Shown: in pieces, positions 7,786 to 18,567 of the stretch | Numbering within the stretch: position 1 is the first letter of the stretch | How the letters are laid out: every line of letters starts with the position of its first letter | DNA from: Candidatus Woykebacteria bacterium | GTDB taxonomy: Bacteria > Patescibacteriota > Microgenomatia > Woykebacterales > RBG-16-39-9b | Length of the DNA stretch: 64,000 bases | Reading direction: 5' to 3' | Assembly (NCBI GenBank): GCA_040876345.1 | Contig: JBBDPM010000001.1 | Coordinates: forward strand, 116,688 to 180,687 | Translations under genes and position numbers: made by a program | Notes under the pieces: generated by a model | Seen by the model: the letters and a program-made list of their open reading frames with translations, nothing else | What the model was told of the DNA's origin: nothing | The model's database searches: none

Positions 7786-8283
7786 TTATCTGGTTACACT
7801 GATGGAAGGTGCTCCACCACCAGGGTCTTCTGATAGGGGACCAGAGACAGTAACTCGATTGTTTGCAGATCTTCTAATAGTATATCCGGTATTATAATCC
7901 GTGCAGTCGGTGTATTGAAGTGTAGCATCATTTGGATCTGGATCCACGGGCATCTCGGCTAGATATCTTTGGGTTGCCCCAACTAAATCATCACAAATAT
8001 CAGCTCCAGCGTCGCTAATTACCGCAGAGGCTGTGCCGATGTTAGTGGGAATTCTGCCTTCCTCAGCGTAAAATTGGCCAACTGCATTCAATACCGCTAG
8101 GACGTCGGATCTTCTGGTGGTGTTCCTTGCCAAAATAAATTGCCTTGGCGGATTAACAGCGATCAAAACAATTGCAAGTAAGACGGCTAATATTCCGATG
8201 ACAACAAGAAGCTCGATTAGAGTGAAACCTCGCTCGCGGTTCTTTGAAGATTTATTTACTTTCTTGTGGAAGGGCAGATACAT
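7786..8283 (-). CDS. Type IV major pilin (prepilin with a class III signal peptide)
   Basis: Leader followed by G|FTLIELLVVIGILAVLLAI with Glu at +5. C-terminal Cys residues suggest a disulfide loop. It is the last gene of the pilus operon. Confidence 0.75.
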   Translation of the reverse strand: MYLPFHKKVNKSSKNRERGFTLIELLVVIGILAVLLAIVLIAVNPPRQFILARNTTRRSDVLAVLNAVGQFYAEEGRIPTNIGTASAVISDAGADICDDLVGATQRYLAEMPVDPDPNDATLQYTDCTDYNTGYTIRRSANNRVTVSGPLSEDPGGGAPSISVTR

Positions 8284-8284
8284 T

Positions 8285-9748
8285 TTACTGTTTACCTATA
8301 ATTACCTGTGCATCGGCCGAGCTGGACTCGGCAAGCGCTGCATCTATAACAACAGTATATCTAGTTGATAAATCCTTTGTCAAGAGAGGTAGATAATCTA
8401 GCTTCGATTTCTTAATTCTTATTTCAGTTTTAGTAAAGTTGTAGTTTGCAGCGTTTCCGGAAGAGATAACGTTGTAACCTTTTAGTTTTAGAAAATCAGC
8501 TGCCTCATTAGCCGACCCTGGAACACCGTTACCGTTGAGCGCTTCAACTTTCAACGATGATTTTTTTAGCACCGGTTTCGGCTCTTCCTCTTTCTTTGCA
8601 GATGAAGTTGCCTCTGGTACTTCTTTCGTGGCTGAGGCGGTAGCTGAAGGTGTTGCTGAAGGAATAGCTGAGGCAGTTGCCGGTTGGACGGATGGGGAAG
8701 CTAGAGTTTGCTTATCCCTTCCTTTTGGGGTCGAAAAAAGGCTGAAGATTTTTGGGGTGAGTAGAGCTAAGGTTATGATAATAACAACCAAAGCGGCCCA
8801 AGGCATCAAGCGGCGCAAGCTGGTTTTCGGTAGTATTGGGGTCTGAATTACTTTAGATTTGGTAGGCTCGTGCTCGTAGACTTCTCTTATGTGAAATCCG
8901 GGTATATACTTATTTAGCCCGGTTGCCAGGATCAGTCTTTTAAAGGCCGAGAAATCTCCAATTTGAGGGTTGACCTTCCCAAAAGCAACGGGGAGAAGGG
9001 AGCCAGTAAAACCTGTCTCCTTAACAATATTTAGTATTTCTTCTTCTCTTTCCCCGAATACAAAAATCTCAAAAGCACTGCCCTCTCTAAGTTTTTTAAT
9101 TTCTGCCTCTACCAGCTCCTTAATCCAGGAAGAGAGCCTCTCCTTATTAAAAACTCCGTCTTTGAAGTGTTTTGTTGTTGAAAAATAAATACCCCCATCA
9201 AATACTACCGAGAACAAAACCGAGGCTCCTTCAAGGGAAATAACAAGGGCGGGCTTGGTAGATTTCTCCAGGAAGGGAAGAAAAACGACTGGTTCTGGAA
9301 TTATTGAATTAATCTTCAATCCCAAATCCGCAAAAAGTTTTTGATAAAAACTAATTAGCTCCTGAGGAGAGGCGACAAGTTGAATGCTTTTGTTTTTTAA
9401 AAGCCGCAAGCTTGTGTAGCTTCCTTTCAGAGGATAAGGTACACTTTCCTGAACTTTTGGATCTTCAATTAAGTCCTTTTCTTTTTCGGCCTCAATAACT
9501 TTAAGGAAACTTCCCTCTTCTGCAAGTAGTATGTTGATATGATGAGATTTTGCCTCAGTCACGCTGCCGAGAAGTTGGCCAAGTTTTAACTTTACCTCAT
9601 CATAATTCTTTATCGCCCCCGACTGTATAGATCCATCATTGATTTCGACACTCCCAGAATTGATTAGATCAAATTTGCTGCCAGATTTCTCCACAATAGA
9701 GGCTTTAATCGATTTTTCATTGAAACTAAGAATTAATTCTTTAGCCAT
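8285..9748 (-). CDS. PilM-like pilus assembly protein fused to a TM segment, an Ala/Ser/Thr/Pro linker and a C-terminal LytR_C-like domain
   Basis: The N-terminus resembles actin-like PilM (LILSFNEKSIKASIVEK..). TM helix at about aa 315-335. The low-complexity linker is followed by LKVEALNGNGVPGSANEAADFLKLKGYNVISSGNA..TVVIDAAL, matching the LytR_C pattern. Confidence 0.55.
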   Translation of the reverse strand: MAKELILSFNEKSIKASIVEKSGSKFDLINSGSVEINDGSIQSGAIKNYDEVKLKLGQLLGSVTEAKSHHINILLAEEGSFLKVIEAEKEKDLIEDPKVQESVPYPLKGSYTSLRLLKNKSIQLVASPQELISFYQKLFADLGLKINSIIPEPVVFLPFLEKSTKPALVISLEGASVLFSVVFDGGIYFSTTKHFKDGVFNKERLSSWIKELVEAEIKKLREGSAFEIFVFGEREEEILNIVKETGFTGSLLPVAFGKVNPQIGDFSAFKRLILATGLNKYIPGFHIREVYEHEPTKSKVIQTPILPKTSLRRLMPWAALVVIIITLALLTPKIFSLFSTPKGRDKQTLASPSVQPATASAIPSATPSATASATKEVPEATSSAKKEEEPKPVLKKSSLKVEALNGNGVPGSANEAADFLKLKGYNVISSGNAANYNFTKTEIRIKKSKLDYLPLLTKDLSTRYTVVIDAALAESSSADAQVIIGKQ

Positions 9749-9751
9749 TTT

Positions 9752-10126
9752 TTAAGGAGTTTCCTTCCATGAGGTAGTAGTTAGAATATTATTAGAGATT
9801 GTCACGGAAACTTCAACCCTTCTCTTTAAATTGTTTTTTGTGGCGACGCTTGCAATCAACCTGGGATTAGGAGATAAGGGTACAGCGACTTGTACGGAGG
9901 CACCGTCTGGCGTAACAAAGGTTTCGCCGGTATAACTTGGGTCACGGAGAAGTTTTATTAGTGCTTGTTCGACGCCAGACTCAGCTGCATAATGAATAAT
10001 TTCCGTTTGGGTGGCTCGCCCGACGTTTTGAGCAAAACTAGTCGACACTAAAGCAATGCTTGTAGCCAAAGTGGTCATGGCAATTACAATTAATATTGTG
10101 ACAAGGGCTTGTCCTTTTTGATTCAT
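9752..10126 (-). CDS. PilX-like minor pilin (PilX_N-type N-terminus)
   Basis: QKGQALVTILIVIAMTTLA .. AAESGVEQAL fits the PilX N-terminal domain pattern. Its start overlaps the upstream gene's stop (ATGA). Confidence 0.5.
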   Translation of the reverse strand: MNQKGQALVTILIVIAMTTLATSIALVSTSFAQNVGRATQTEIIHYAAESGVEQALIKLLRDPSYTGETFVTPDGASVQVAVPLSPNPRLIASVATKNNLKRRVEVSVTISNNILTTTSWKETP

Positions 10127-10638
10127 GGTCTTTCTCTTAAGCTTATAACAGTACTAAAATTCTTGGATTGGAGGCTAGTCTTCGTCGGCTCGGTTGAAGA
10201 TAAAGTGAAGGTTAAAATGACAGTTGGGAATCCTCCTTGGTTACCAATATTTGTGAATTGCAGATTGTTTGCCTGTATAAAATCGCCGGTTATGGGTACG
10301 CTTGGCCCTGAAGTCTGCAAGTTTATAGTTGAGCCGGACAAAGTGTAGCGGTAGTCGCCCCCGTTTATCCGAAGCCAGAGTATTGAACTTGTATTCCCTG
10401 GGGCAGCGGGGTCACGCACTTCTTGGGCTCTTCTGATGTCATAAGTGAGCCTTTTTAATAAGTAACTACCTTCCGTTTCAAGTCGATTTCGAGCGGTTGA
10501 CTCAAGGTTGGACTCAGATATCCTGAATAAAAGGTCAAGGCCGATAACTAGAATTATAGATAATAAAGTAAAATAGATAAGTATTTCTATTAAAGTAAAT
10601 CCTTTATCGTTTCTCAAACCTTTCTTAAAAGTTTTCAT
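10123..10638 (-). CDS. Pseudopilin / minor pilin with a prepilin-type N-terminus
   Basis: KG|FTLIEILIYFTLLSIIL cleavage/methylation motif. 171 aa. Confidence 0.65.
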   Translation of the reverse strand: MKTFKKGLRNDKGFTLIEILIYFTLLSIILVIGLDLLFRISESNLESTARNRLETEGSYLLKRLTYDIRRAQEVRDPAAPGNTSSILWLRINGGDYRYTLSGSTINLQTSGPSVPITGDFIQANNLQFTNIGNQGGFPTVILTFTLSSTEPTKTSLQSKNFSTVISLRERP

Positions 10639-13214
10639 GGTGAATAATTTACAATAACGTCTTGTAATACAGGGGTGATAATGCCATTCCCAGAAAATTC
10701 AACTTTATACCGAAAGTGGCGTTTACTGACAAGCGCAAGTGGTATTGCTCCAGGACTGTCAAAGTAAGTGGCTGATGTGCCGTCTGGTCCAACAAAACTA
10801 CTACTTAACCACGGGCCGTCCGAATTCAGAGAAGCTATCTGGAATTTAATATTTGTTGTTAGTGGTGGCGCATTCTCCGACCAAGTAACTCGGTTGAAAC
10901 CGACGTTGCTTCCAGCATCAAATGTTCTTGATTCAAAAGTACCAAGCCCCGCAAAATCTGGCCCAATGCCAGGCCCAACAATCTGCAGTTCCCTGGAGTT
11001 GTGAACTGTAGCAAGAAAAGCAACGTTCGCTTCAAAAAATATTCCGTTCGCGTCTCCATCTAGATCTCGTGACCCAAGTTCGGCTATTGCCGAGGGTGTT
11101 TGGACATTAAGAAGCAAAAACTCTTTGTTACTAACCGTCGTTGCTAAGAAAGCTATGTTTCCCGCTATCCAAACACCATTGACGTTACTGCCCACGTTAT
11201 AAGTTGAAGGTGGTGAGTTACTTACCAAACTGATACTTGCTGGATTTGTGACGTTAAGGATATTAAATTCGGGGCCAGAGCCGTTATTTTGGGTTGCAAG
11301 ATAGGCTGTATTGCTGTTCACAAAAACTTCGGAACCATCTGAGTTTGAAGCAGCGTTGTAAGAGCCAATCTCGGTTGGCAGAGTTTTATTGGTAATGTCC
11401 ACCACCATGAGCTCTTTATCATCACGGGCAGTAGCTAAATAGGCTCGATTTCCAACAACGGTTACTCCATAAACTGCATTTGCGTTGACCGGTCCATTAC
11501 CTACCTCAAAACTTCCGATAACGTTTGGGTTGGGTGTGTGAGGACAGGTCAGACCAAAGCGGCTCGCCGCTAAATTTACATCGGTGATACTTACAATTTT
11601 GTCACCATTTATGTCTGAAGGCACATCACCTGTCATACCCACGTTAGACACTATTGTGCCGATATCAACGTTATCAACTCGGTTATCTCCGGTTACATCA
11701 AAACAAGTGTTAACACTTGCTATATAAAGTTCTCGGGCGGTCCCGCTGGAAGATTGTTTTGTTATATAAGCAAATTTGAGTCTGCCAGAGCCTTGTACTG
11801 TGATGTCCAATGCGTCTACAGCGTCTCCAAGATCAAGTGTAGCAACTTTGGCAGGGGCTGCCTTATTACTTATGTTAATTACGGTTAGCTCCTCAGTAGC
11901 ATGGCTCGTGGCCAGATAAGCAAATTGCCCGCTGGTTGCACTGTCTTCCACTGAGATTCCGTTGACGTCGGCCGTTAAATTAAGTGTTCCAGTAACCACG
12001 GGACTTGCCGGGTTAGAGACGTTGATAATCGCGAAATCTGGGGCGCTGCCAGCATCTTGTATACCCACGTAAGCATAATTATTCAACACGAATGTATCGA
12101 CCCCATTTCCATTGCCGGAGTTATCATAGTTTGCTAAAGATTGCGGATTTCCCCAGTTAATGTTTCTTTTCAGCTGTACTTCTCCACCAGAAACGCTTGT
12201 AGTTTCCGTGTTGGATAAGGTGCCGGAGTTAAAATCTGCTTGAGTAGTTTGCACCCAGGTAGTGTTTCCCAAAGTCCTTGTTAAATAGAATGTGTTTTGG
12301 ATGTTTCCACCGAAAAATGAGGTCCAAGAAACATTAGAGGTGATTTTTTTTGTGGAAGTGTCTATTGTGCCAGAGGGGCAGGTGACAAGGTTGTTACTAG
12401 AATCACGACAAGCATCTCCAATTTCTACTTGTCTAGTGAAATTTCCGACTGTTTCTGATCCAGTTTCAAGACGCCAAGTTTTAGCAGGATCAAGGCCGGA
12501 AAGAGTCATATTTTGAATATAGGTTGGAGAAAAACAGAGGAGGGGGTTTAAACTACAGTTTGTTTTTATCACCCAAATCTCAACTATAGTAGTTGGCGTA
12601 TAAGGCGGAAATGTGGCAGTCAGTTCTCCGGAAGACCCTGGTGTCCCAATATAATCGGCAATTGCGTTTGATGGGGTGCAGCCGCCTTGGGGGCAAATAG
12701 AAACCCGCTCCTCTATACCGGGGTTCAGACCAGTAAGTTTTAAACTTGAAATTGTGTTAAAAGCGAAACACGACAGGGGTTCTAAGGGCCCACCACAGTT
12801 TGAAGTTTTTAATACCCATACTTCAACAATGGCTTGAGGTGTTAGTGGTGTGTATTGAGGAAAATTAACATCAAGCTGACCGGGACCGAAGGAATAATCT
12901 GTATCCTGGGTAAAAACACCATTTTGACACCCAGAAGTTTGGCAAATTGATACTGAGTATTCTCTGCCAGACGGCTCAATATGATAAGTTCCGTTTGTTA
13001 GCTTAGACCAGCCCGACTCTCTTACAGAACGCATTGCTTCTCCTTGCAAAAGAGAGGAGGTTTCGGCGGCAAGAACGTTTGCAGCTCTCTCTCGAGACTC
13101 TCTTGTGCTAACCAAAAGAAGGCTGACGCTGGTCAAAACAATAGCGACAATACCAAAGCCGATGACGAGTTCAATTAAAGCTTGCCCATTTTTAGTTAAT
13201 CGTGACTCTTCCAT
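10635..13214 (-). CDS. Giant pilin-like protein (859 aa), a putative pilus-tip adhesin. Pilin-like N-terminus, tandem Cys-containing repeats, a dockerin-like Ca-binding module, and LVIVD-type beta-propeller repeats
   Basis: N-terminus NG|QALIELVIGFGIVAIVL has Glu at +5. Two roughly 85-aa tandem repeats each carry 4 Cys. DVTGDNRVDNVDIGTIVSNVG and DINGDKIVSITDVNLAASRFG resemble dockerin type I repeats. Repeated (A)Y(L/V)AT..(E)L.V(I/V)(N/D)(I/V)(S/T)N(P/K)..P units match LVIVD repeats. Confidence 0.65.
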   Translation of the reverse strand: MEESRLTKNGQALIELVIGFGIVAIVLTSVSLLLVSTRESRERAANVLAAETSSLLQGEAMRSVRESGWSKLTNGTYHIEPSGREYSVSICQTSGCQNGVFTQDTDYSFGPGQLDVNFPQYTPLTPQAIVEVWVLKTSNCGGPLEPLSCFAFNTISSLKLTGLNPGIEERVSICPQGGCTPSNAIADYIGTPGSSGELTATFPPYTPTTIVEIWVIKTNCSLNPLLCFSPTYIQNMTLSGLDPAKTWRLETGSETVGNFTRQVEIGDACRDSSNNLVTCPSGTIDTSTKKITSNVSWTSFFGGNIQNTFYLTRTLGNTTWVQTTQADFNSGTLSNTETTSVSGGEVQLKRNINWGNPQSLANYDNSGNGNGVDTFVLNNYAYVGIQDAGSAPDFAIINVSNPASPVVTGTLNLTADVNGISVEDSATSGQFAYLATSHATEELTVINISNKAAPAKVATLDLGDAVDALDITVQGSGRLKFAYITKQSSSGTARELYIASVNTCFDVTGDNRVDNVDIGTIVSNVGMTGDVPSDINGDKIVSITDVNLAASRFGLTCPHTPNPNVIGSFEVGNGPVNANAVYGVTVVGNRAYLATARDDKELMVVDITNKTLPTEIGSYNAASNSDGSEVFVNSNTAYLATQNNGSGPEFNILNVTNPASISLVSNSPPSTYNVGSNVNGVWIAGNIAFLATTVSNKEFLLLNVQTPSAIAELGSRDLDGDANGIFFEANVAFLATVHNSRELQIVGPGIGPDFAGLGTFESRTFDAGSNVGFNRVTWSENAPPLTTNIKFQIASLNSDGPWLSSSFVGPDGTSATYFDSPGAIPLALVSKRHFRYKVEFSGNGIITPVLQDVIVNYSP
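12449..12947 (-). repeat. In-frame tandem duplication (2 x ~85 aa) inside the giant pilin-like gene
   Basis: Protein repeats CQTSGCQNG..FPQYTPLTPQAIVEVWVLKTSNCGGPLEPLSCF and CPQGGCTPS..FPPYTPTTIVEIWVIKTNCSLNPLLCF. Coordinates are approximate. Confidence 0.5.
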
Positions 13215-13680
13215 ATTGATTTATGGTAAACGCTCTAGTTTGACCAGTATTAGATTCAGTTAACGCGAAGTTATTTTGGGCACCGCTGTAGTTTTGTACC
13301 TCCCCTGAAAGTTTAGAAAAGATAATGTTACTAGAGGGTAAATTTATTGGGCTTATGGATATGCTTGGCTCAAACGTAGTTTCTAGGTTGGCTGTATCAC
13401 TTAGGTTGTAAGAAGCTCCTTTGAAAATAACGATTTTGTTTTGTTCAAAATGCACACCGTGGCTTTCGGCTGAGGAAGATCCCCCCGTGCTTCCCACCAT
13501 AGCTAGGTTTTGAGCTTCTTTAAGTGCAAAATAGATTTGGTCTTCGGCCGCTCTTATGTCGGCTTGGGATTTTGGTCTAGTGATACTCACTAATATGAAT
13601 CCAAAAGCTAAAGAAAATAGGGCGATAACTAATATAATTTCTATTAGGGTAAAGCCAGAAGACTTTAGAGATTTTCTCAT
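13192..13680 (-). CDS. Pseudopilin / minor pilin with a prepilin-type N-terminus
   Basis: SG|FTLIEIILVIALFSLAFGF motif. 162 aa. Overlaps both neighbours. Confidence 0.65.
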   Translation of the reverse strand: MRKSLKSSGFTLIEIILVIALFSLAFGFILVSITRPKSQADIRAAEDQIYFALKEAQNLAMVGSTGGSSSAESHGVHFEQNKIVIFKGASYNLSDTANLETTFEPSISISPINLPSSNIIFSKLSGEVQNYSGAQNNFALTESNTGQTRAFTINQYGRVTIN

Positions 13681-14780
13681 CCTGGGCTTATTTGGCTAAT
13701 TAATTGGTAAATTGGAGAAATTACAGCTAGGATCACAGAGCCAACAATAATACCAATTACAATGATTAAAGCTGGCTCAATTACCGTGGACAGGGTTTTT
13801 ACTTCGCGGGAGAGTTTGTCGTGGTAGTGGAGGGCTACACCAGCCAGGACTTCGTCGAGTTGTCCAGTTTTCTCTCCGGTGGAGATTATTCGAGTCATTA
13901 GAGTAGGAAAAGTTTTAAATTCTCTCATCCCCTCGGCCAACCCCTTACCTTCAGTCAATTTATGAGTTACTTCTTCAAGTTCACGCTTGGTTCTCTTATT
14001 CAAAACCACAGTTGATGAAGCTTCGACCGCCTTAATTATGGGAATGCCAGCCGAAAGTAGTAAGGATAAGGTGGACGAAAGGCGTGATAAGTCAAGATAT
14101 CTCAAGACACTTCCGAAAACTGGGATGTGAAAAGAAGCGGTGAGTAGTTTTTTCCGTACTTCTTTATTTGATAGTAAAATTATTGTGCCAATAGCAGCGA
14201 TTAAGATGAATATACCGACAAAAATATAGTATTTGTTTACAAAAAGAGCAGTGGAAAGGAGGATTCTTGTTGGTAATGGTTTGGGAATAGTAAGCTTTTC
14301 AAATATTTCGGCAACTCTGGGAACAACAAATCCAAAAAGAACCGCCATTACGAAAAAAAGCACGCCCAAGACAATCGCTGGGTAAAAAGCGGCTTGTTTA
14401 ATATCGTTTTTTAACTCTTCCTCTTGTTTCATGTTGTCGGAGAGCTGTTTGAGTACTTTATCCAAGCCCCCGCTTTCCTCTCCGGCTTTGACAGTATTTA
14501 CAAATATATCGTCAAAAATATTGGGGAATTGAGAGAAGCTTTCAGCAAGGTTGTGCCCTTTTTGGATGGAGTCTCTAACCGAGCGGACCACACCTTTAGT
14601 CTTTAAGTTGTCGGAGTCGTTTTCAATGCTTTCAAAAGCATCTAAAATTGGGATTCCGGCCCCAAGCATGATCCCTAAAGACTCGACTAAGGTGAGTCTT
14701 TCAATAAAAGGAAGTTTTACCTTAAGGGGGATTATTTTCGGCTCTTTTTTAACTGTGAAATTAAACATTGGCAGTTTCAA
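13677..14780 (-). CDS. pilC: Type IV pilus inner-membrane platform protein PilC (GspF family)
   Basis: Two GspF-type repeats (..GEESGGLDKVL.. and ..GEKTGQLDEVL..) and three TM segments. 367 aa. Confidence 0.85.
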   Translation of the reverse strand: MKLPMFNFTVKKEPKIIPLKVKLPFIERLTLVESLGIMLGAGIPILDAFESIENDSDNLKTKGVVRSVRDSIQKGHNLAESFSQFPNIFDDIFVNTVKAGEESGGLDKVLKQLSDNMKQEEELKNDIKQAAFYPAIVLGVLFFVMAVLFGFVVPRVAEIFEKLTIPKPLPTRILLSTALFVNKYYIFVGIFILIAAIGTIILLSNKEVRKKLLTASFHIPVFGSVLRYLDLSRLSSTLSLLLSAGIPIIKAVEASSTVVLNKRTKRELEEVTHKLTEGKGLAEGMREFKTFPTLMTRIISTGEKTGQLDEVLAGVALHYHDKLSREVKTLSTVIEPALIIVIGIIVGSVILAVISPIYQLISQISPG

Positions 14781-15049
14781 CCAAAATTATACCACTTGTG
14801 GGTGTTAAAGTAGATTCCAAAGTTTGACCCCAAACCCATAGCTATGTTATGATCAGGTACGAAATTTGTTGAAACAGCTTCGGATGGGTATTTTGTCGAC
14901 TAAGATTTAATCGCCAGTGAGCCCAATCTGAGGCCGCCGTAGGAGGGATTTCGATCAGTTTCGGGACGGTGTTACCCATGCAGCCCCAACCACATTTCCT
15001 AGTGAAGCCGTTAGTGGATCTAGGTGGGGCACCGAAAAGGAGGAAAGTG

Positions 15050-15649
15050 ATGTGGCGTACAGTAGAAGGACGAAGAGTTCTAAGGCCAACCGATAGAGAT
15101 CTTAAGCCTCGGGCAAGCAAACTCCAAGATGTCGCGAGGGTTATCAAAGGGCTAGGGTCTCCAGAATCGGTGGATATCTACGTTTCGAAGTGGCGGTTTG
15201 GTGTTACGATGCTGGGTGTTAATAGCAACATCAAAGGCGCAGTTCCCATAGGCGAGGTGGTAGAAGCTCTCAACATAGAGTTTGGGCGTGGTGAGTACCA
15301 CCAAGTAGGTGTTCAGCATGTAGGTGAATGGATTCTCTCACTTGCGACCACCTGCCCTGTCTTTTGGGCCTACACCGAGGATCGCTCTTGCTACATCGGG
15401 CGGCACGATCCGGTTGTAGCGGGGGGCACAGTGCTGTACAAGCACAGCGATGAATGCCCTTGTAGGCATCATGGAGTCAGCTGCAGCGTCCGGCCTTGCG
15501 GGGATTGCAAGGGAAGTTGTCCAATGATTCGTAAATGCACGAACTGTGGGAGTCGTTGGGATCTGAACAGGAAGCCTCCACGGCCGCTGACGCTCATTTG
15601 GACTCCGGTCCACGTTTCTAACCCCTGGTCTAGGGAGCAAGAAACGTAA
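15050..15649 (+). CDS. Hypothetical Cys-rich protein in a GC-rich (55-60% GC) island, antisense to the pilus operon
   Basis: Consensus SD (AAGGAGG, 15037-15043) lies 6 nt upstream of the ATG. The 200-codon ORF stays open across sequence at about 58% GC (chance p ~1e-3). The C-terminus has Cys pairs (CPCRHHG..CGDCKGSCP..CTNCG). The track ORF 14969-15649 includes an unlikely 5' extension. Confidence 0.45.
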   Translation: MWRTVEGRRVLRPTDRDLKPRASKLQDVARVIKGLGSPESVDIYVSKWRFGVTMLGVNSNIKGAVPIGEVVEALNIEFGRGEYHQVGVQHVGEWILSLATTCPVFWAYTEDRSCYIGRHDPVVAGGTVLYKHSDECPCRHHGVSCSVRPCGDCKGSCPMIRKCTNCGSRWDLNRKPPRPLTLIWTPVHVSNPWSREQET

Positions 15650-15716
15650 CGATTGTCGATCGTACTGGGTGGCGGTGGCAGGCTTGCCCTTCACCGCTGC
15701 CCACAGTTCTTATGTG

Positions 15717-17405
15717 TTATTCGCTTACTGCGCGGATGACTTCGCCAAGGCTTGTTTGGCCTTCGGCCACTTTTTCTAAGCCATCTTCAATCATTAGTTT
15801 AAAGCCTTCAGATTTTGCCTGATCCATTAGTTTTTGAATTGACGACTTGTCAAAAATTAGCTTGCGTAGGTCCTCACTCACCCGCAGTACTTCGTAAATC
15901 CCAACTCTTCCTCGGAAACCGGTATTTGAGCATTCTGGGCAGCCTTTTCCACGCCTTGCTTCTACTTTACCGGCCAAAAAACCGGCTACTACTTCTTCGC
16001 CGTATTCTTTAGCAAGGTCTTTAAGAACGCTTTCTTTAATCTCCTCTTTTACAAGGCAAGATGGGCAATTTCTGGCTACAAGTCGCTGCGAAATCACTAA
16101 ATTAAGGGTGGATCCAATTAGATAAGGCTGGGCTCCAAGGTCGTAAAGCCTTGGAATTGTACTGACTGCATCGTTCGTATGTAAAGAGCTCAGTACTAAA
16201 TGACCAGTTAGAGCAGCGTGAATTGCAATTTCGGAAGTTTCTTCATCGCGGATTTCTCCGACTAAAATTACGTTTGGATCATGCCTCAGGATTGCCCGAA
16301 GCCCAGAGGCAAAAGTAAGGCCAGCTTTAGGATTTATTTGGGTTTGGTTTACTCGGGGGAGTCCATATTCAATTGGATCTTCAATAGTGCAGATATTGAC
16401 ACTAGAGGTGTTGAGAATTATTAGCAGGTTGTATAGGGTTGTCGTTTTACCACTTCCCGTGGGGCCAGTTGAAAGTACCATACCATGGGATTTTTGGATG
16501 CCTTCTTTAACTAGTTTTAAGTTATTACCAGAGAGTCCAAGATCCTCCAAAGTCTTTGGTCTTGCTGCCGATGAAAGAAGCCGCATTACGGCGTCCTCAC
16601 CGTGATAGGTAGATAATATCGAGACCCTTACTGATATTTCGTCCGAGCGGTGTTTGAAGCGAAATCTACCGTCTTGGGGGAGCCGGTGCTCATCGGTGCG
16701 CAGATCTGAAATTATTTTTATCCTGGTGATTAATCCAGCCTGAATTGTGGTTGGAAGCTCTAAAACATCTCTAAGCCTGCCGTCAACCCTGAAGCGGATT
16801 ATTACTCTATCACCTACATTTTCAATGTGAATATCACTGGCTCTCTCCGATGCCGCAAAGTCTAATATTGTATCCAGGATTTTTACAACTGGAAGATCCT
16901 CACCACCGACTGCTCCTTTCGCTTTTGCTTGGGAGACGTTTTCCTCAATAATTTCCTTAAAATCCTTCCTTATATCCTTATGATATTGATCGAGGACGTC
17001 ATCTATTATTGAAGGTAGAGTGAAGTATATTTCTACTGACCCACCAACCTTTTTCTTGATAAAATCTAGGGCTTCAGGGTCTTGAGGATTTTCAAGCGCA
17101 ATTTTTACACTGTTACCATCTTTGGCAAAAGTCACCGCCCTTTTTTCAGCGGCTATCTCCTCGGGGATAAGATCTAAGATTGATTTTTCGATTTTATGGT
17201 CTTTTAGATCGGCGTAAGGGTAACCAACGTATTCGGCGATCGCTTGCCCAAGAAACTTCTCTAATATTACACCACGTTCTATTAATACATCAGTTAAGGG
17301 TTTATTTAGGTCAGAAGCAGCTTTTTCTGCCTCTTGTAGTTCGGCAGGATCAACAAATCCAGATTTTAAGATAAGCTTTTTAAGCTCATTACCTTCAATG
17401 GTCAT
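15717..17405 (-). CDS. pilB: Type IV pilus assembly ATPase PilB (GspE family)
   Basis: Walker A (STGPTGSGKTTTLY), Asp and His boxes, and a C-terminal tetracysteine motif (CPSC..CPEC). 562 aa. Confidence 0.9.
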   Translation of the reverse strand: MTIEGNELKKLILKSGFVDPAELQEAEKAASDLNKPLTDVLIERGVILEKFLGQAIAEYVGYPYADLKDHKIEKSILDLIPEEIAAEKRAVTFAKDGNSVKIALENPQDPEALDFIKKKVGGSVEIYFTLPSIIDDVLDQYHKDIRKDFKEIIEENVSQAKAKGAVGGEDLPVVKILDTILDFAASERASDIHIENVGDRVIIRFRVDGRLRDVLELPTTIQAGLITRIKIISDLRTDEHRLPQDGRFRFKHRSDEISVRVSILSTYHGEDAVMRLLSSAARPKTLEDLGLSGNNLKLVKEGIQKSHGMVLSTGPTGSGKTTTLYNLLIILNTSSVNICTIEDPIEYGLPRVNQTQINPKAGLTFASGLRAILRHDPNVILVGEIRDEETSEIAIHAALTGHLVLSSLHTNDAVSTIPRLYDLGAQPYLIGSTLNLVISQRLVARNCPSCLVKEEIKESVLKDLAKEYGEEVVAGFLAGKVEARRGKGCPECSNTGFRGRVGIYEVLRVSEDLRKLIFDKSSIQKLMDQAKSEGFKLMIEDGLEKVAEGQTSLGEVIRAVSE

Positions 17406-17770
17406 TTGGAATACTCGCGGATTTTATCAACAATTTCTTGGGGGGTGACATCTGTCTTCATGAATATTTCTTTCGCGCCTAAGCTTTTGCATTTTTTTAC
17501 ATCTTCTTCGGAAACATTTAGGTTTGTTAAAACAATCACCGGTATGTCTTTTGTTTCCGAGTCTCCTTTGATTTTTTCCAAAACTTCTGTACCACTCATT
17601 TTCGGTAACATTATATCGAGTACTATTACATCTGGCTTGGTGTCCTTTACTTTTTGCAGACCTTCTTCACCGTCCAGAGCAGTTTCAACCTGAAATCCGT
17701 CATGAGTGAATTTCATGTTATACATCTTCACCATTAAAGAGTCGTCCTCAACAAGCAGTACCTTACTCAT
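17402..17770 (-). CDS. Single-domain response regulator (CheY-like receiver)
   Basis: Receiver domain with the acidic pocket (LLVEDD) and phospho-acceptor Asp (VIVLDIMLP). No output domain. Its stop overlaps the pilB start. Confidence 0.8.
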   Translation of the reverse strand: MSKVLLVEDDSLMVKMYNMKFTHDGFQVETALDGEEGLQKVKDTKPDVIVLDIMLPKMSGTEVLEKIKGDSETKDIPVIVLTNLNVSEEDVKKCKSLGAKEIFMKTDVTPQEIVDKIREYSK

Positions 17771-18567
17771 CAGTTTTTACCCTCCTCTTGTGTAAGATTT
17801 TCAGCTACTTCTCTTGCTTTTTTACTGCCAGTTGTGGGTAAAGAAAAACAGAATTTTGAGCCCTCTTGAGGCTTACTTTCTCCAAGCCAAATTTTTCCAC
17901 CAAGTTTCTCAATAATGACTTTAGAAATATAAAGGCCTAGGCCACTGCCGCCCGAAACTCTAGTTTCTTTAGTTGAGGCTTGGGAAAATTTTTCGAAAAG
18001 ATGCGATTGCTTTTCCACTGGTACTCCCGCTCCGGTGTCGGCAACACAAGTTATTACGTAGTCTTCCTTCTGTGAAAAGTTAACCGTAATAGAGCCTTTT
18101 TTCGTAAATTTCATAGCGTTACCGACAAGATTAATTAGTACTTGAACTAGCTTGTCGGTGTCAGCTTGGACCTTTGGTAAATTTTCTGAAGGCGCTTCAA
18201 GAATTAGAGAAAGCTTTTTTTCGGAAGCGGAACGAATCAAAGATTGTAATAGAAGCCTTGCTTGTTCAACCACATCAATGTCGTCTCGTAAAATAAATTG
18301 CATTCGGCCAGCCTCAAGCCTGCTTATATCCAGCATGCCGTTGACAAGCCTGATTTCCCGCTCAACCGCAAGGAGCATTTCAGTAAGAACGTCCCTGACT
18401 TGAGGTGAGACAGGTCCTGCATCTCCGGCAAGAAGCATGTTTAAGTAACCTTTAATAGTGGACATTGGGGTACGTAGCTCATGAGAAACAATTGAAATAA
18501 ACTCATCCTTAACGGATTCCAACTTTTCTGTCTGGACATTTTGTTTTTGGGAGGTAGTCTCTTGCAT
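17770..18567 (-). CDS. Cytoplasmic histidine kinase (HisKA + HATPase_c, no sensor or TM)
   Basis: H-box SHELRTPMSTIKGY, N-box NLVGNAMKFT, G-boxes DTGAGV and GGSGLGL. Its stop overlaps the response regulator start. Confidence 0.8.
   Translation of the reverse strand: MQETTSQKQNVQTEKLESVKDEFISIVSHELRTPMSTIKGYLNMLLAGDAGPVSPQVRDVLTEMLLAVEREIRLVNGMLDISRLEAGRMQFILRDDIDVVEQARLLLQSLIRSASEKKLSLILEAPSENLPKVQADTDKLVQVLINLVGNAMKFTKKGSITVNFSQKEDYVITCVADTGAGVPVEKQSHLFEKFSQASTKETRVSGGSGLGLYISKVIIEKLGGKIWLGESKPQEGSKFCFSLPTTGSKKAREVAENLTQEEGKN

Follow-up and report, generated by a model that had tools for sequence, protein, structure and literature searches.

A large modular minor pilin with an LVIVD propeller in a type IV pilus operon of Candidatus Woykebacteria, probably displaying binding modules on the pilus

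The window analysed here is a stretch of 64,000 nucleotides from a Candidatus Woykebacteria genome (NCBI GenBank assembly GCA_040876345.1, contig JBBDPM010000001.1, positions 116,688 to 180,687). On its reverse strand, at 10635-13214, lies a gene with an ATG start, whose product of 859 amino acids (aa) is 100% identical to protein WD231_00845 of a metagenome-assembled genome at NCBI, annotated there as a hypothetical protein of Candidatus Woykebacteria. The gene is the second of four minor-pilin genes in a type IV pilus operon; the other three are GspH-like, GspJ-like and GspK-like, the last without Glu5. Its product is a minor pilin with nested modules, and it probably serves as a modular type IV minor pilin which displays putative binding modules on the pilus. 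Unless stated otherwise, all features described below are on the reverse strand; homologous proteins and loci are cited by P and L numbers, respectively.

The protein begins with MEESRLTKNG/QALIELVIGFGIVAIVLTSVSLLLV, in which position -1 is occupied by Gly and +5 by Glu, along with a hydrophobic stretch of about 20 residues. Residues 1-10, with Gly-1 as the last one, are the leader peptide as read from the sequence (13185..13214), and residues 11-67 (QALIE..., Glu at +5; 13014..13184) are the pilin alpha-1 helix according to the AlphaFold2 model and the homolog alignment. The class III signal-like start with Glu+5, which the initial annotation of this DNA had pointed out, is present, and the two key residues are kept in homologs. 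Conservation of both G10 and E15 reached at least 90% among 31 aligned family members; in a 25-sequence N-terminal alignment, which bears on the proposed prepilin cleavage site, Glu+5 was found in 25 of 25 sequences and Gly-1 in 24, the remaining one having Ala. The Pfam model N_methyl (PF07963), which had been proposed as a check, gave a negative result, with 12.4 bits for the full-length protein and 16.7 bits for the isolated segment at a cutoff of 21.2. Some homologs possess a canonical GFSLIE or GFTLIE N-terminus and pass this cutoff, and precomputed N_methyl matches exist for P0008, P0016, P0017, P0029 and P0033. A profile of the N-terminal family matched type IV pilins of solved structure across leader and alpha-1 (geopilin, E 5.5e-5; PilA). 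The AlphaFold2 model (mean predicted local distance difference test score, pLDDT, 82.1; predicted template modelling score, pTM, 0.55) showed a single unbroken helix at 3-67 (65 residues), then a small beta-sheet head. To judge from the alignments, the N-terminus is of the prepilin type, and the homologs settle the identity of the protein as a pilin. Gln was present at +1 in two pilins of the operon, KG/QALVT (9752-10126) and NG/QALIE (13185-13214), and it is the most frequent +1 residue across the LVIVD-pilin family.

The pilin head consists of two separated parts. Its first strand, residues 68-84 (12963..13013; modelled as a strand at 75-82), could be aligned to the head in every homolog; the remaining head comprises residues 246-318 with Cys269 and Cys279 (12261..12479; model strands 246-312), and W247, D285 and W297 were invariant in the 31-sequence alignment. 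Between these parts a head loop has received two Cys-rich repeats, which were delimited by self-alignment: residues 85-168 with Cys 91/96/140/149 (12711..12962) and residues 169-245 with Cys 174/179/220/227 (12480..12710). Their BLOSUM62 local score of 137, compared with 27 +/- 5 and a maximum of 46 in 500 shuffles, identified them as a tandem duplication and confirmed the two tetracysteine repeats noted earlier, at residues ~85-168 and ~169-245. This 161-residue segment corresponds to a head loop of 4 residues in nearly all homologs, and the insert occurred only in the query, P0002 and P0056. A Pfam search with the repeats matched no family, and among 1.84 billion representative proteins the domain was found in just seven clusters. 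One of these is a tenascin, matched over FN3 repeats with weak similarity; the fold is therefore probably a disulfide-bearing FN3-like or Ig-like sandwich.

Linker strands at residues 319-349 (WVQTTQADFNSGT...GGEVQLK; 12168..12260), whose motif is also present in the ~320-aa open reading frames (ORFs) of L016 and L088, lead to a seven-bladed LVIVD beta-propeller at residues 350-754 (10953..12167). LVIVD (PF08309) scored 65.7 bits, passing the cutoff of 20.2, and the tandem repeats form a seven-bladed propeller, as belongs to a PF08309 propeller; where "at least six" repeats had been counted, the propeller stands and the number of blades is corrected to seven. A Foldseek comparison of the whole model with the PDB returned generic propellers only (DDB1, Fbw7) and was uninformative for the non-propeller parts.

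Blade 3 of the propeller contains a dockerin-like insert of 54 residues (504-557; 11544..11705), which is flanked by Cys504 and Cys557. It has two EF-hand-like Ca-loop motifs, DVTGDNRVDNVD at 506-517 and DINGDKIVSITD at 534-545, each followed in the AlphaFold2 model by a helix (515-523 and 543-552), i.e., the duplicated 12-residue loop of dockerin type I is present. Dockerin_1 (PF00404) gave no match to the full protein at E<=1, and the isolated insert scored 18.7 bits against a cutoff of 22.9; the orthologous inserts of P0002 (29.6 bits) and P0004 (28.9 bits) were above it. The previous dockerin call was thus correct as to the two Ca-loop motifs and, with respect to the Pfam threshold, fails for the query and holds for P0002 and P0004. 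The insert is exclusive to the query and P0002-P0004, and most homologs have a 1-residue loop at this site. Cys repeats and dockerin-like segment both exist as annotated, except that their placement had to be corrected to nested insertions, which stand for loops of 4 and 1 residues, respectively. A true cellulosomal dockerin was considered and not adopted, due to the sub-cutoff score, the internal position of the insert and the fact that no cohesin is known here.

The C-terminal 105 residues (755-859, motif FVGPDGT ... NYSP; 10638..10952) form a jelly-roll domain, probably of a galactose-binding-like kind, which was absent from the initial reading of the protein; it resembles carbohydrate- and protein-binding modules. 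Searches of PDB sequences with the full protein and with a profile of the C-terminal domain yielded nothing useful. Loci with this domain were found by a degenerate DNA pattern for WN[YF]VGPDGT, for which the chance expectation is about 1 in 596 Gb. At least 120 loci matched, each in a GTDB species genome, and all of the 120 listed (120/120) were confirmed by hidden Markov model; according to their lineage names, 76 of the matches listed are from Patescibacteria, 14 from "uncultured Gammaproteobacteria", 16 are unclassified and 14 belong to other groups. The domain lacks a Pfam model although it is common, being present in at least 120 GTDB species genomes, most of them Patescibacteria. Tandem arrays of 4-6 copies were present in giant non-pilin proteins, e.g., those of L014 (Nitrospirae) and L033 (Azambacteria). 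The loci labelled "uncultured Gammaproteobacteria bacterium" are L005, L007, L011, L025, L055, L068, L080, L081, L100, L110, L112, L114, L115 and L121. Since these 14 records contain pilin genes of the Patescibacteria type, the data suggest that their taxonomic labels are wrong.

Among the matches listed, nine proteins combine pilin, LVIVD propeller and C-terminal domain. Six of them are from Woykebacteria, Beckwithbacteria, Nomurabacteria, Parcubacteria, Saccharimonadales and Saccharibacteria, and three from the doubtful "Gammaproteobacteria". Minimal members of ~320 aa without a propeller were found in L016, L050 and L088. In L016 and L088 the stretch WxQTTxxDFNxGT...GGEVQL (query 319-349) runs directly into SGxxESSTFDAG...NYSP (query 755-859), which means that the propeller was inserted where these two meet. 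The same site is occupied by DUF4082/Lectin_like domains in P0028 and by unrelated middles in P0056, L042 and L062, the one in P0056 being a non-LVIVD middle in a protein with the same Cys repeats; P0017 and L066 have an additional segment ahead of the propeller. A further 70 ORFs among the matches listed encode pilins of ~600 aa with another middle. These pilins (e.g., L018, 989-2797) have a canonical GFTxIE start, CarboxypepD_reg domains, the same jelly roll and a tail of ~50 aa, and each of them is followed by a pilin of ~210 aa. P0005 is a mosaic with respect to the query, since helix, head and C-terminal domain are 58-67% identical and the propeller only 32-34%, which would suggest that modules were exchanged or that the propeller evolves fast. 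Four grafts are thus nested in the query: the Cys-rich repeats in the head loop, the jelly roll after the head, the propeller before the jelly roll, and the dockerin-like insert in blade 3. As far as the sequences tell, the pattern is one of a constant scaffold of pilin and jelly roll with variable modules, which would face outward.

The genes of the operon are on the same strand in the order histidine kinase, response regulator, PilB, PilC, 162-aa pilin, 859-aa pilin, 171-aa pilin, 124-aa pilin, PilM-like/LytR_C protein, 165-aa pilin. The histidine kinase and a single-domain response regulator (17402-18567) are directly upstream of pilB, which encodes the extension ATPase (15717..17405; T2SSE 406 bits, MshEN 51 bits); the platform protein PilC follows at 13677..14780 (T2SSF 184.5 bits). 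The upstream minor pilin of 162 aa (13192..13680) is GspH-like, with N_methyl at 22.9 bits and a sub-cutoff GspH match (E 1.9e-8). Downstream are a GspJ/ComGF-like minor pilin of 171 aa (10123..10638; N_methyl 30.3 bits, PRK10557 and ComGF below cutoff) and a GspK/PilX-like minor pilin of 124 aa (9752..10126), which begins KG/QALVT with Thr in place of Glu at +5 and has matches below cutoff to GspK (E 0.0017) and PilX_N (E 0.048). The minor-pilin block, flanked on one side by pilB-pilC, is bounded on the other by the gene for a PilM-like protein with a C-terminal LytR_C domain (8285..9748; LytR_C 33.8 bits, weak PilM match) and the gene for the putative major pilin of 165 aa (7786..8283; N_methyl 38.4 bits, GspG-like N-terminus). 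The N_methyl and Gsp-type matches of the neighbours bear out the earlier statement that the gene is located among minor pilins; proteins with a class III signal numbered only five in the window, all of them in this operon.

This order is not peculiar to the window. The arrangement response regulator-pilB-pilC-pilin-[LVIVD-pilin family]-pilin-pilin-pilM/LytR_C-major pilin was complete in the metagenome locus L001, and L002 and L003, contigs of the more distant homolog P0029, had the same order from pilB to the contig limit; the slot inside the minor-pilin block was constant in every locus examined. Sub-cutoff matches of family members, mostly over the helix, were to ComGE (17 of 25), PilV (8) and GspI/XpsI (7-8). 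From gene order and these matches we infer that the family would fill the GspI/PilV/ComGE slot.

The closest precedent appears to be PilX2 from the Saccharibacteria member Nanosynbacter lyticus TM7x. This minor pilin has a seven-bladed propeller of the RCC1 type at its C-terminus and was proposed as a tip adhesin; its deletion roughly halved host binding while filaments remained (PMC11623550). Like PilX2, the 859-aa protein is a minor pilin of Patescibacteria and the largest of its locus, departs from the canonical signal region and has a propeller of seven blades; the difference, compared by description only, is in the repeats, which are RCC1 there and LVIVD here. In TM7x the jelly-roll domain is present in another pilin, PilX1, and both PilX1 and PilX2 are structurally lectin-like (PMC11623550). 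The 859-aa protein goes beyond PilX2 by a jelly roll, i.e., the module type of PilX1, the dockerin-like insert and the two Cys-rich repeats. The ~600-aa pilin family, likened by description only, may correspond to PilX1.

Modular pilins were defined by Raynaud et al., who demonstrated that PilB of S. sanguinis is an adhesin (PMC8179133). The pilins of that species, PilB with a vWA domain and PilC with a lectin, resemble the protein described here in that the pilin module carries domains which are not specific to pilus biology; they have a single C-terminal graft, whereas insertions are nested in the 859-aa protein. Dataset S1 of that study contains 30 proteins with IPR012902 and IPR013211, one of them a Falkowbacteria protein of 860 residues (PMC8179133), and IPR013211 is the LVIVD repeat (PMC10210494). 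The combination of pilin and LVIVD was therefore already catalogued in 2021, uncharacterised and only listed, as a "motif of unknown function". Pilins with IPR002105, which we take to be the dockerin entry, are also in Dataset S1. The 859-aa protein itself would escape that survey (PMC8179133) because of its sub-threshold N_methyl score.

GspK and CofB are large minor pilins with additional structural domains. GspK resembles the present protein in having a domain inserted into the sheet of the pilin head, where the Cys repeats are found here, and CofB in having beta-rich C-terminal domains after the pilin module (PMC8179133). In contrast, the inserted domains are unrelated, and the 859-aa protein retains Glu5, a residue which GspK is not known to have; in this operon it is the 124-aa neighbour that is GspK-like. 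With the tip adhesins PilY1/PilC of Pseudomonas and Neisseria the protein would share a beta-propeller at the pilus tip in company with minor pilins. In PilY1 this propeller contains a Ca site of the EF-hand kind. PilY1 is, however, no pilin but docks onto the complex of minor pilins, whereas the propeller is covalently part of the pilin in the 859-aa protein. Membership in the PilY1 type was rejected, since no Pfam match to this propeller family was obtained at E<=1 and the protein is a pilin in its own right; the analogy extends to function only. The 859-aa protein has propeller and jelly roll together in a single subunit, plus two lineage-specific inserts.

The protein is most likely an adhesin displayed on the pilus. 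The original proposal of a pilin presenting binding modules is supported by the conserved prepilin N-terminus, the fixed minor-pilin slot, the swapped middle modules and the precedent of PilX2. A prepilin peptidase would cleave the protein at Gly10, and the alpha-1 helix would then pack with the three adjacent minor pilins into an assembly-priming complex. When this complex reached the pilus tip, the bulky modules would come to lie at the distal end, where propeller, jelly roll and Cys repeats could attach to a ligand on a surface, most likely a host-cell glycan or protein; a host ligand is favoured because cultivated Patescibacteria are known as episymbiotic. The 12 cysteines make six pairs within modules, which fits an extracellular location, and the paired Ca-loop motifs would suggest Ca2+-dependent binding or stability. 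Host recognition by Patescibacteria is little understood outside a few cultivated Saccharibacteria, and the protein and its relatives could provide a concrete candidate for the subunit by which Woykebacteria, along with several other lineages, recognise hosts.

Several points weigh against this interpretation. Both N_methyl and Dockerin_1 were below cutoff in the 859-aa protein, and position +1 is Gln, where Phe is usual. The domain arrangement in the model is uncertain because the pTM of the whole protein was 0.55, and the Cys repeats were modelled with low confidence, at pLDDT 44-84 overall and 44-70 in the first repeat. The assignment to the GspI/PilV slot was based on gene order and sub-threshold matches. 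No PilB paralog was present among all ORFs of the window, and therefore no PilT there; no prepilin peptidase was found among that part of the ORFs which was scanned against Pfam. Binding, cleavage and localisation, for this protein as well as its family, are inferred.

The sub-cutoff N_methyl score and the atypical Gln+1 would also be compatible with a membrane-anchored surface protein, in which the helix is an uncleaved or unpolymerised signal anchor and propeller and jelly roll are exposed on the cell surface. The large TM7x pilins PilX1 and PilX2 likewise have no predicted PilD signal (PMC11623550), and the jelly roll is found in the giant non-pilin surface proteins of L014 and L033 as well. 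However, an invariant Glu+5 and a near-invariant Gly-1 would be needless for a plain anchor, some homologs have canonical GFSLIE or GFTLIE starts which pass N_methyl, and the gene kept its position within the minor-pilin block in all loci examined; a surface anchor is thus considered unlikely.

A similarly small chance is given to a role mainly in assembly or dynamics, in which the protein would prime or cap the filament and the Ca insert tune extension and retraction, as was proposed for the Ca site of PilY1. The gene does belong to the core minor-pilin block, and two EF-hand-like Ca loops are located within the propeller; the title of a reference in PMC11623550 describes PilY1 of P. aeruginosa as regulating motility in a calcium-dependent way. 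On the other hand, the dockerin-like insert is missing in most family members and the propeller in the minimal ones, and these modules are therefore dispensable for assembly. Furthermore, TM7x filaments form without PilX2 (PMC11623550), and no PilT paralog was present in the window. Such a role would in any case be compatible with adhesion and does not exclude it. A receptor of a DNA-uptake pilus, whose modules take hold of DNA or keep the pilus close to a source of it, is very improbable: the N-termini of the family match competence models of the ComGE/ComGF type below cutoff, and in Thermus the large tip subunit ComZ bears a beta-solenoid module and has a role with DNA (cited in PMC8179133), but no DNA-binding domain was detected in the 859-aa protein, its jelly roll is similar to modules that bind carbohydrates and proteins, lectin-like cargo is found on related scaffolds, and competence was normal in TM7x T4P-2 mutants (PMC11623550).

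The adhesin interpretation could perhaps be extended, in a more speculative and rather doubtful form, to a cassette-swapping host-recognition pilin throughout the Patescibacteria, with a scaffold of PilV-slot head and jelly roll and fixed hot spots of insertion. The LVIVD propeller, DUF4082/lectin-like domains, Cys-rich FN3-like repeats and the dockerin-like Ca module would then be swapped between lineages, in a manner which may be likened to receptor-binding proteins of phages; in the Woykebacteria protein the dockerin-like insert might serve as a Ca2+ switch or allow a cohesin-like partner to dock. If cassette swapping were true, the cargo would predict host range. The pattern of a scaffold with swappable cargo across Patescibacteria is a useful lead, which could make host recognition testable; the constant scaffold and variable modules could guide the prediction of host range and the choice of constructs for binding assays.

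Some further observations concern the neighbouring genes. The PilM-like part is joined to LytR_C by a linker rich in Ser, Ala, Thr and Pro, and the same arrangement occupies the same operon position in L001 (8786-9880). A response regulator is located ahead of pilB in L001 as well, and the pair of kinase and response regulator suggests dedicated regulation of the pilus. Between pilB and pilC, which abut in the syntenic L001, is a spacer of 936 nucleotides (14781-15716). Searches of this spacer against Rfam, Pfam, PHROGs and PDB sequences and by tblastn against phages provided no identification, with only a weak match to PHROG 35049 (E 6e-4). It contains an antisense ORF of 226 aa on the forward strand (14969-15649) with a Cys-rich C-terminus. 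Its G+C content is higher, at 0.46 compared with about 0.42. The spacer looks like an inserted element of some kind.

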